Shown here piece after piece: positions 47,484 to 48,251 of a stretch of 64,000 nt of DNA. The stretch is from Escherichia coli. GTDB lineage: Bacteria; Pseudomonadota; Gammaproteobacteria; Enterobacterales; Enterobacteriaceae. A program made the translations under genes and the position numbers. Position 1 is the first letter of the stretch. Every line of letters begins with the position of its first letter. Where the stretch lies: the NCBI RefSeq assembly GCF_050320075.1, contig NZ_CP190018.1; one strand, given 5' to 3'. The notes beneath the pieces were generated by a model. The model saw nothing but the letters and a program-made list of their open reading frames with translations. It was not told the origin of the DNA and searched no databases.

Positions 47484-47498
47484 GGTAATGACTCCAAC

Positions 47499-48002
47499 TT
47501 ACTGATAGTGTTTTATGTTCAGATAATGCCCGATGACCTTGTCATGCAGCTCCACCGATTTTGAGAACGACAGTGACTTCCGTCCCAGCCTTGCCAGATG
47601 TTGTCTCAGATTCAGGTTATGCCGCTCAATTCGCTGAGTGTAACGCTTGCTGATTACGTGCAGCTTTCCCTTCAGGCGGGATTCATACAGCGGCCAGCCA
47701 TCCGTCATCCATACCACGACCTCAAAGGCCGACAGCAGGCTTAGAAGACGCTCCAGTGTGGCCAGAGTGCGTTCACCGAATACGTGCGCAACAACCGTCT
47801 TCCGGAGCCTGTCATACGCGTAAAACAGCCAGCGCTGGCGCGATTTAGCCCCGACGTATCCCCACTGTTCGTCCATTTCCGCGCAGACGATGACGTCACT
47901 GCCCGGCTGTATGCGCGAGGTTACCGACTGCGGCCTGAGTTTTTTAAATGGCGGAAAATCGTGTTGAGGCCAACGCCCATAATGCGGGCGGTTGCCCGGC
48001 AT
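47499..48002 (-). CDS. insB: IS1 InsB (transposase catalytic part; InsAB' made by frameshift)
   Basis: 167-aa ORF recognised as InsB; overlaps insA in the -1 frame. Confidence 0.92.
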
Positions 48003-48196
48003 CCAACGCCATTCATGGCCATATCAATGATTTTCTGGTGCGTACCGGGTTGAGAAGCGGTGTAAGTGAACTGCAGTTGCCATGTTTTACGGCAGTGAGA
48101 GCAGAGATAGCGCTGATGTCCGGCGGTGCTTTTGCCGTTACGCACCACCCCGTCAGTAGCTGAACAGGAGGGACAGCTGATAGAAACAGAAGCCAC
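47921..48196 (-). CDS. insA: IS1 InsA protein
   Basis: 91-aa zinc-finger/HTH protein [23 protein letters not shown]…. Confidence 0.95.
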
Positions 48197-48251
48197 TGGA
48201 GCACCTCAAAAACACCATCATACACTAAATCAGTAAGTTGGCAGCATCACC

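Follow-up and report, generated by a model that had tools for sequence, protein, structure and literature searches.

A complete IS1 marks a 1,822-bp deletion within the F9 fimbrial operon of an Escherichia coli lineage

Introduction

Insertion sequences (ISs) of the IS1 family are abundant in Escherichia coli; they measure 768 bp, end in imperfect repeats of 23 bp, and carry insA and insB', which are linked by a −1 frameshift at an A6C motif. An 8–9 bp target-site duplication marks a simple insertion of IS1, not the element itself. In the classical adjacent deletion, intramolecular transposition of IS1 removes the interval between the IS end and the target. Here we describe an IS1 with all of these family features in the F9 (Fml, yde) chaperone-usher operon of E. 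coli, located in a 64,000-nucleotide stretch of contig NZ_CP190018.1 (assembly GCF_050320075.1), which is referred to below as the window. The operon is chromosomal and lies between hipBA, with a variable region, and ydeP-safA-ydeO; the gene order in the window is the mar and lsr operons, hipBA, a variable segment, the f9/yde locus, ydeP-safA-ydeO, ydeNM, yddAB and pqqL.

Among 42 genomes, Wurpel et al. (2014) found an intact f9 operon in 60% and, in 17, an operon disrupted by deletions, truncations or insertion elements; all phylogroup A strains belonged to the latter group (PMC3966885). The locus in the window resembles such disrupted f9 (ydeQRST) operons, of which the one with the ydeT pseudogene of K-12 is an example, in occupying the same hipBA-ydeP position, in showing decay by deletion and IS, and in having kept the adhesin gene. 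It is unlike the K-12-type allele in what was lost. The K-12 type has lost the 5' portion of the operon, as far as the point that corresponds to window position 47230, and keeps ydeS and ydeR, whereas in the window lineage the major subunit gene was lost in one deletion, and the 3' end of the usher gene, ydeS and the 5' end of ydeR were lost in another, which is associated with IS1. A prediction made earlier from the sequence of the window (the original prediction) had read this IS1 as the product of an IS1-promoted adjacent deletion that removed the usher C-terminus and at least part of one minor subunit, and that inactivated the fimbriae while leaving the adhesin gene intact.

Results

A complete IS1 lacks a target-site duplication

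The IS1 occupies positions 47484–48251 and is complete, being 768 bp long with both terminal inverted repeats present. The two arms (GGTGATGCTGCCAACTTACTGAT and GGTAATGACTCCAACTTACTGAT; approximately 23 bp, imperfect) agree at 18 of 23 positions, and the sequence of the right inverted repeat (IRR) occurs once in the window, compared with 0 occurrences expected by chance. The repeats, insA, insB' and the A6C motif were all found (Table 1), in accord with the original prediction of a complete element, and the IS1 is apparently functional by the look of its sequence. It differs from IS1A and IS1B-type copies: 28 of its 768 positions differ from the IS1A copy of strain LR-03 (about 96% identity), it is about 97% identical to IS1B-type copies, and the Prokaryotic Genome Annotation Pipeline (PGAP) labels it in the record of strain YZLc1-3 only as an IS1 family transposase with a programmed frameshift. 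The YZLc1-3 chromosome is rich in IS1, which was found at approximately 22 places.

The transposase of the element is antisense relative to the fimbrial genes. A promoter scan of positions 47300–48600 gave a sole promoter-like site, which lies within the left inverted repeat (IRL) on the minus strand and is directed leftward; the IRL is the expected place of the IS1 transposase promoter. On the plus strand, the same scan gave no outward promoter from IS1 toward ydeQ.

The DNA that flanks the element reads CTGGAACAC on the left (47475–47483) and CAAAAATGA on the right (48252–48260), as originally noted. Terminal matching of the two flanks, at every length between 2 and 14 bp, revealed no direct repeat. 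Neither an 8–9 bp repeat at the flanks nor an intact usher gene contiguous with the locus was found. Because the target-site duplication of IS1 was missing, we inferred that a deletion had occurred at this site.

The IS1 stands in place of 1,822 bp of the intact operon

The window was compared by blastn with the corresponding locus (L002) of strain HSP60 from human urine, in which the f9/fml operon is intact and 99% identical. The HSP60 operon consists of six genes, namely those for a fimA-like major subunit, a chaperone and an 883-aa usher, followed by the fimF-like ydeS, the fimG-like ydeR, and ydeQ. Window positions 44861–47484 correspond to L002 2862–5485 (99.35% identity), and positions 48252–53000 correspond to L002 7307–12054 (99.14% identity). 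In this alignment with an intact F9/Fml operon, which had been suggested along with the original prediction, the flanks of the IS1 lie 1,822 bp apart in HSP60, and these 1,822 bp (L002 5485–7306) are absent from the window. The first G of IS1 is by chance the same as the usher base at L002 5485, so that the blastn alignment extends one base into IS1 and the boundary carries a one-base ambiguity.

The missing 1,822 bp hold usher codons 560–883 (324 codons), the whole of ydeS, and codons 1–97 of ydeR together with two bases of codon 98. The usher had been expected to end at the IS1 boundary roughly 300 codons short, a figure to which the measured 324 codons correspond. The expected loss of the usher C-terminus and of at least part of one minor subunit also held, but the loss is larger than had been thought, since it takes all of ydeS and reaches into codon 98 of ydeR. 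The IS1 junction falls within codon 560 of the 883-aa usher, and the usher open reading frame (45805–47505) keeps 559 of the 883 codons and then runs 7 codons into IS1 (VMTPTY and a stop). On the other side of the element, the reading frame enters midway into a fimbrial subunit, as the original prediction had it; the translation of 48253–48462 (KNEGTAEN...ALINVIYTWQ) is the final 69 residues of YdeR, codons 99–167. In the YZLc1-3 record, PGAP annotates the usher as missing its C-terminus and the fimbrial protein as missing its N-terminus.

The two flanks have their undeleted spacing in approximately 3,485 of 5,426 complete E. coli genomes, as judged from matches at one place that covered all of the query except IS1. 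In rows sampled down the genome ranking, the flanks were approximately 6,054–6,061 bp apart with a 5-kb query, with the exception of strain SMS-3-5, in which an IS3 insertion widens the span. Because the undeleted spacing is common among complete genomes, the deleted state is derived and the undeleted state is ancestral. The ends of the IS1 abut DNA that is not contiguous in the intact operon, the IS has been retained, and the duplication has been lost, which is what characterizes an adjacent deletion. IS1-promoted deletions likewise leave an IS end fused to distant DNA without a duplication.

A second, IS-free deletion removed the major subunit gene

A further deletion of 2,425 bp was found at 44860/44861. 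Window positions 44425–44860 correspond to L002 1–436, after which the alignment resumes at L002 2862. The lost interval (L002 437–2861) contained the 3' part of a decarboxylase gene, a helix-turn-helix (HTH) pseudogene, and the fimA-like f9 major subunit gene (L002 2128–2691) with its upstream region. The junction (…GGGATCGTAG joined to AGTAGTTAAAC…) is blunt, and neither an IS nor microhomology was found at it.

With the major subunit gene and its upstream region (the expected site of the operon promoter) gone, the operon would be non-functional even if the usher were intact. The IS1 event thus did not necessarily inactivate the fimbriae: the second deletion independently removed the major subunit gene, so inactivation is not creditable to the IS1 event alone, and the claim that this event was the sole or demonstrable inactivator of the fimbria cannot be sustained as stated.

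Both deletions mark the same genomes

Each of the three junctions (IS1 left, IS1 right and upstream deletion) was searched against the 5,426 complete genomes. Each was found in one piece with 100% identity in only two of them, YZLc1-3 (NZ_CP123240.1; chicken faeces, Yangzhou) and Ec-U3 (from human urine in Burkina Faso). The YZLc1-3 chromosome matches the window at 100% identity, and window position 1 lies at 2,575,051 of its record. Over 11.7 kb around the locus, YZLc1-3 and Ec-U3 are identical except for an 869-bp segment (window 41041–41909) that is missing in Ec-U3. Within this segment lie a small hypothetical open reading frame, an amidohydrolase-family fragment and the 3' end of a gene for an aldo/keto reductase, which in Ec-U3 (L003) carries a frameshift annotation; six other related contigs retain the segment. 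The 869-bp loss looks private to Ec-U3.

A look-up of the exact 566-aa truncated usher product in the public assembly collection gave 110 blocks that contain it. Six draft or long contigs with this product were fetched, and each has the upstream junction as well as the left junction of IS1. The sequence breaks off inside IS1 in five of them; the sixth (GCA_965285185.1) spans the element and matches the window at 100% identity over 13.7 kb. No case of either lesion alone was seen in the complete genomes or, for the upstream and IS1 left junctions, in the fetched contigs. The distribution is consistent with the junction pair being a marker of one clonal lineage.

An independent IS1-associated deletion in the same usher gene

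Strain LR-03 (NZ_AP027474.1) carries an IS1A copy at positions 5133–5900 of its locus (L004), in the same usher gene and the same orientation, 18 bp upstream of the window junction. Like the element in the window, it has no duplication, its flanks (…GCCAGTCG and GCGAATGCA…) being unrelated, and f9 DNA downstream of it is lost. It differs in isoform (28 of 768 positions), in its left site, and in the size of the deletion, which is much larger and spans ydeS, ydeR and ydeQ into the 5' part of ydeP. The LR-03 deletion is an independent event and a parallel to the one in the window.

In over a dozen further complete genomes, an IS1 end lies no more than a few hundred bp from the junctions, in the usher gene, ydeS or ydeR, at different sites. 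Insertion of IS1 into the f9 operon appears to recur.

Fimbrial genes and neighbouring features of the window

The operon has kept only two of its six genes whole, those for the chaperone and the adhesin. It has lost the major subunit gene and ydeS altogether, and its usher gene and ydeR are truncated (Table 1). The chaperone differs from the HSP60 copy by 3 amino acids and the usher stub by 2 residues, with 0 internal stops in each. YdeQ is a two-domain, FimH-like protein whose top match in the Protein Data Bank (PDB) is 6aow, the F9 pilus adhesin FmlH (E=1.7e-107), with FimH chains scoring lower. It shows 0 amino-acid differences from the HSP60 protein (WP_000520696.1), and the adhesin gene is intact, as originally proposed. 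Judged from its gene content, the f9 locus is a non-functional operon remnant.

Table 1. Coordinates of the IS1 and of the fimbrial and adjoining genes in the window.
Feature	Position	Strand	Evidence or description
Carboxymuconolactone-decarboxylase-family gene, 5' fragment	44646–44882	+	PGAP "missing C-terminus"; full gene in HSP60, L002 222–1025
f9 periplasmic chaperone gene, intact	45053–45763	+	Pfam PapD_N and PapD_C; PGAP coding sequence
f9 usher gene, N-terminal 559 codons	45805–47483	+	PapC_N; Usher profile positions 1–327 of 549
IS1	47484–48251	minus (transposase)	Repeats at ends, Pfam matches, A6C motif
IRR	47484–47506		Left end of IS1; element begins with GGTAATGACTCCAACTTACTGAT
insB'	48002–47499	minus	167-aa InsB'; DDE_Tnp_IS1 (PF03400), E=3e-75
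AAAAAAC (A6C) frameshift motif	47939–47945		In the insA/insB' overlap
insA	48196–47921	minus	91-aa InsA; Zn_ribbon_InsA and HTH_Tnp_IS1 (Pfam PF12759, PF03811)
IRL	48229–48251		Right end of IS1; element closes with the reverse complement of GGTGATGCTGCCAACTTACTGAT
ydeR 3' fragment (FimG-like minor subunit)	48252–48462	+	Last base of codon 98, codons 99–167 and stop; L002 7307–7517
ydeQ/fmlH, F9 tip adhesin gene, intact	48522–49436	+	Pfam FimH_man-bind, E=6e-78

Several features were observed elsewhere in the window. In the variable segment that precedes the f9 locus, just downstream of hipBA, a SIR2-family NAD-dependent deacylase gene (35233–36585, minus strand) adjoins a frameshifted and N-terminally truncated remnant of an ISNCY-family transposase (36800–37808); the interval 35233–37808 may be a small acquired island. 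Upstream of hipBA, the gene for an ECSE_1600-family autotransporter (27841–33261; 1,806 aa) is intact, and its LR-03 counterpart is annotated as frameshifted. A phosphotransferase system (PTS)/porin sugar-uptake cluster ends with a 6-phospho-beta-glucosidase gene (3742–5181), for which the annotation gives a pseudogene that contains an internal stop.

Discussion

As described above, a complete IS1 without a target-site duplication stands where 1,822 bp have been deleted from the F9 operon. Adjacent deletions and IS-IS recombination are the usual reasons for missing duplications (PMC11708052). The association of IS1 with the deletion is supported, as the original prediction had claimed; the adjacent route that it named is the more parsimonious of two. 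The specific mechanism is a matter of inference, sequence alone does not separate the routes, and adjacent deletion is the most economical of them. We consider that an adjacent deletion following a prior IS1 insertion probably produced this allele. IS1 would first have entered either junction, creating a 9-bp duplication, and would then have transposed intramolecularly to a second target close by within the operon. The stretch that separated this target from the IS end would have been deleted in the process, with the IS kept and one copy of the duplication lost. The product would be the chaperone gene, a 559-codon usher stub, IS1, the ydeR tail and an intact fmlH. A precursor anchored in the usher gene, with the downstream operon intact, would read the IRL end of IS1 followed by CTGGAACAC and GTCACGCAGCGACC, and one anchored in ydeR would read ACGGGTTATTA, then CAAAAATGA and GGTAATGACTCC. 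In the long-term E. coli evolution experiment, all 14 of 14 events that combined an IS with a deletion were an insertion followed by an adjacent deletion (PMC11708052).

Some observations weigh against this route. No precursor with IS1 at one junction, a 9-bp duplication and an otherwise intact operon was found among the 5,426 complete genomes: when the junctions were searched singly, only the two genomes that carry both matched in one piece, and the other hits with at least 80% coverage were two-piece joins, except for the single gapped alignment of LR-03, and had IS1 at different nearby sites. Nor was a precursor present among the fetched contigs with the exact truncated usher product, the lineage being sparsely sampled. 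The product predicted for a ydeR::IS1 precursor with a 9-bp duplication and an HSP60-type N-terminus was not on record in an exact-product look-up, which is a weak negative. Furthermore, recombination of two IS1 copies in direct orientation would yield the very same final structure. In that case, two same-orientation insertions, one at usher codon 560 and one at ydeR codon 98, would have been followed by RecA-dependent recombination with loss of 1.8 kb and one IS1, and the surviving hybrid IS1 would be flanked by half of each duplication. Such recombination predicts exactly what is seen, a complete IS1 without a duplication between flanks that are non-contiguous in the intact operon. IS-IS recombination is named as a frequent cause of missing duplications (PMC11708052), other strains have independent IS1 insertions in the usher gene, ydeS or ydeR, and the genome offers IS1 at approximately 22 places. 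However, it needs three events, of which two are same-orientation insertions within 1.8 kb, and no genome with a single or double insertion at these exact sites was found among the complete genomes or in one product look-up. Adjacent deletion needs two events rather than three, over a short interval and in a genome with approximately 22 IS1 places, and is favoured for these reasons; recombination between two copies is possible and would be the clearly less likely origin.

A single step, in which the insertion of IS1 and the loss of 1.8 kb were simultaneous and no resident copy was involved, has been proposed for IS5 and IS481 (PMC11708052), so that the concept is in print, and it would fit with a precursor that was never seen. 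An absent precursor is expected anyway in a lineage so thinly sampled, the one-step event has not been demonstrated for IS1, and the cases of this kind in the evolution experiment all resolved to insertion followed by adjacent deletion (PMC11708052); we regard it as improbable here. Since IS1 is a multi-copy repeat of the type that often breaks or misjoins assemblies, the joining of the usher gene to ydeR might also be a repeat-induced misjoin across the element. Both junctions are 100% identical in three independent assemblies that span it (YZLc1-3, Ec-U3 and GCA_965285185.1), and short-read contigs of other samples have this left junction, too, and stop within IS1. An assembly artefact, which we consider to have next to no probability, was rejected because independent assemblies agree on the junctions.

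With adjacent deletion as the favoured origin of the IS1 junctions, the whole locus would represent a decaying fimbrial operon that has become fixed in one clonal lineage, the major subunit gene having been lost by an independent deletion. It is conceivable, and in our view very improbable, that the remnant is functional, with the orphan FmlH still expressed, for instance through a promoter at a junction or by read-through, and displayed with the help of a different FimD-type usher, such as the type 1 pilus machinery. The scan of 47300–48600, which gave no outward promoter, lends no support to such retained use of the chaperone and FmlH, and the lineage is too young for the conservation of the chaperone gene and fmlH to be informative.

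The allele is a further case of the already known erosion of the f9 operon and of IS1-linked deletion, and it is already annotated publicly as pseudogenes plus an IS1. Junctions 44860/44861, 47483/47484 and 48251/48252 provide a precise marker for one E. coli lineage, with little import beyond strain typing. Members of this lineage have come from a chicken in China and from human urine in Burkina Faso. Strains with both deletions are predicted to be unable to assemble F9 fimbriae, yet they would be positive in a PCR for the adhesin gene.
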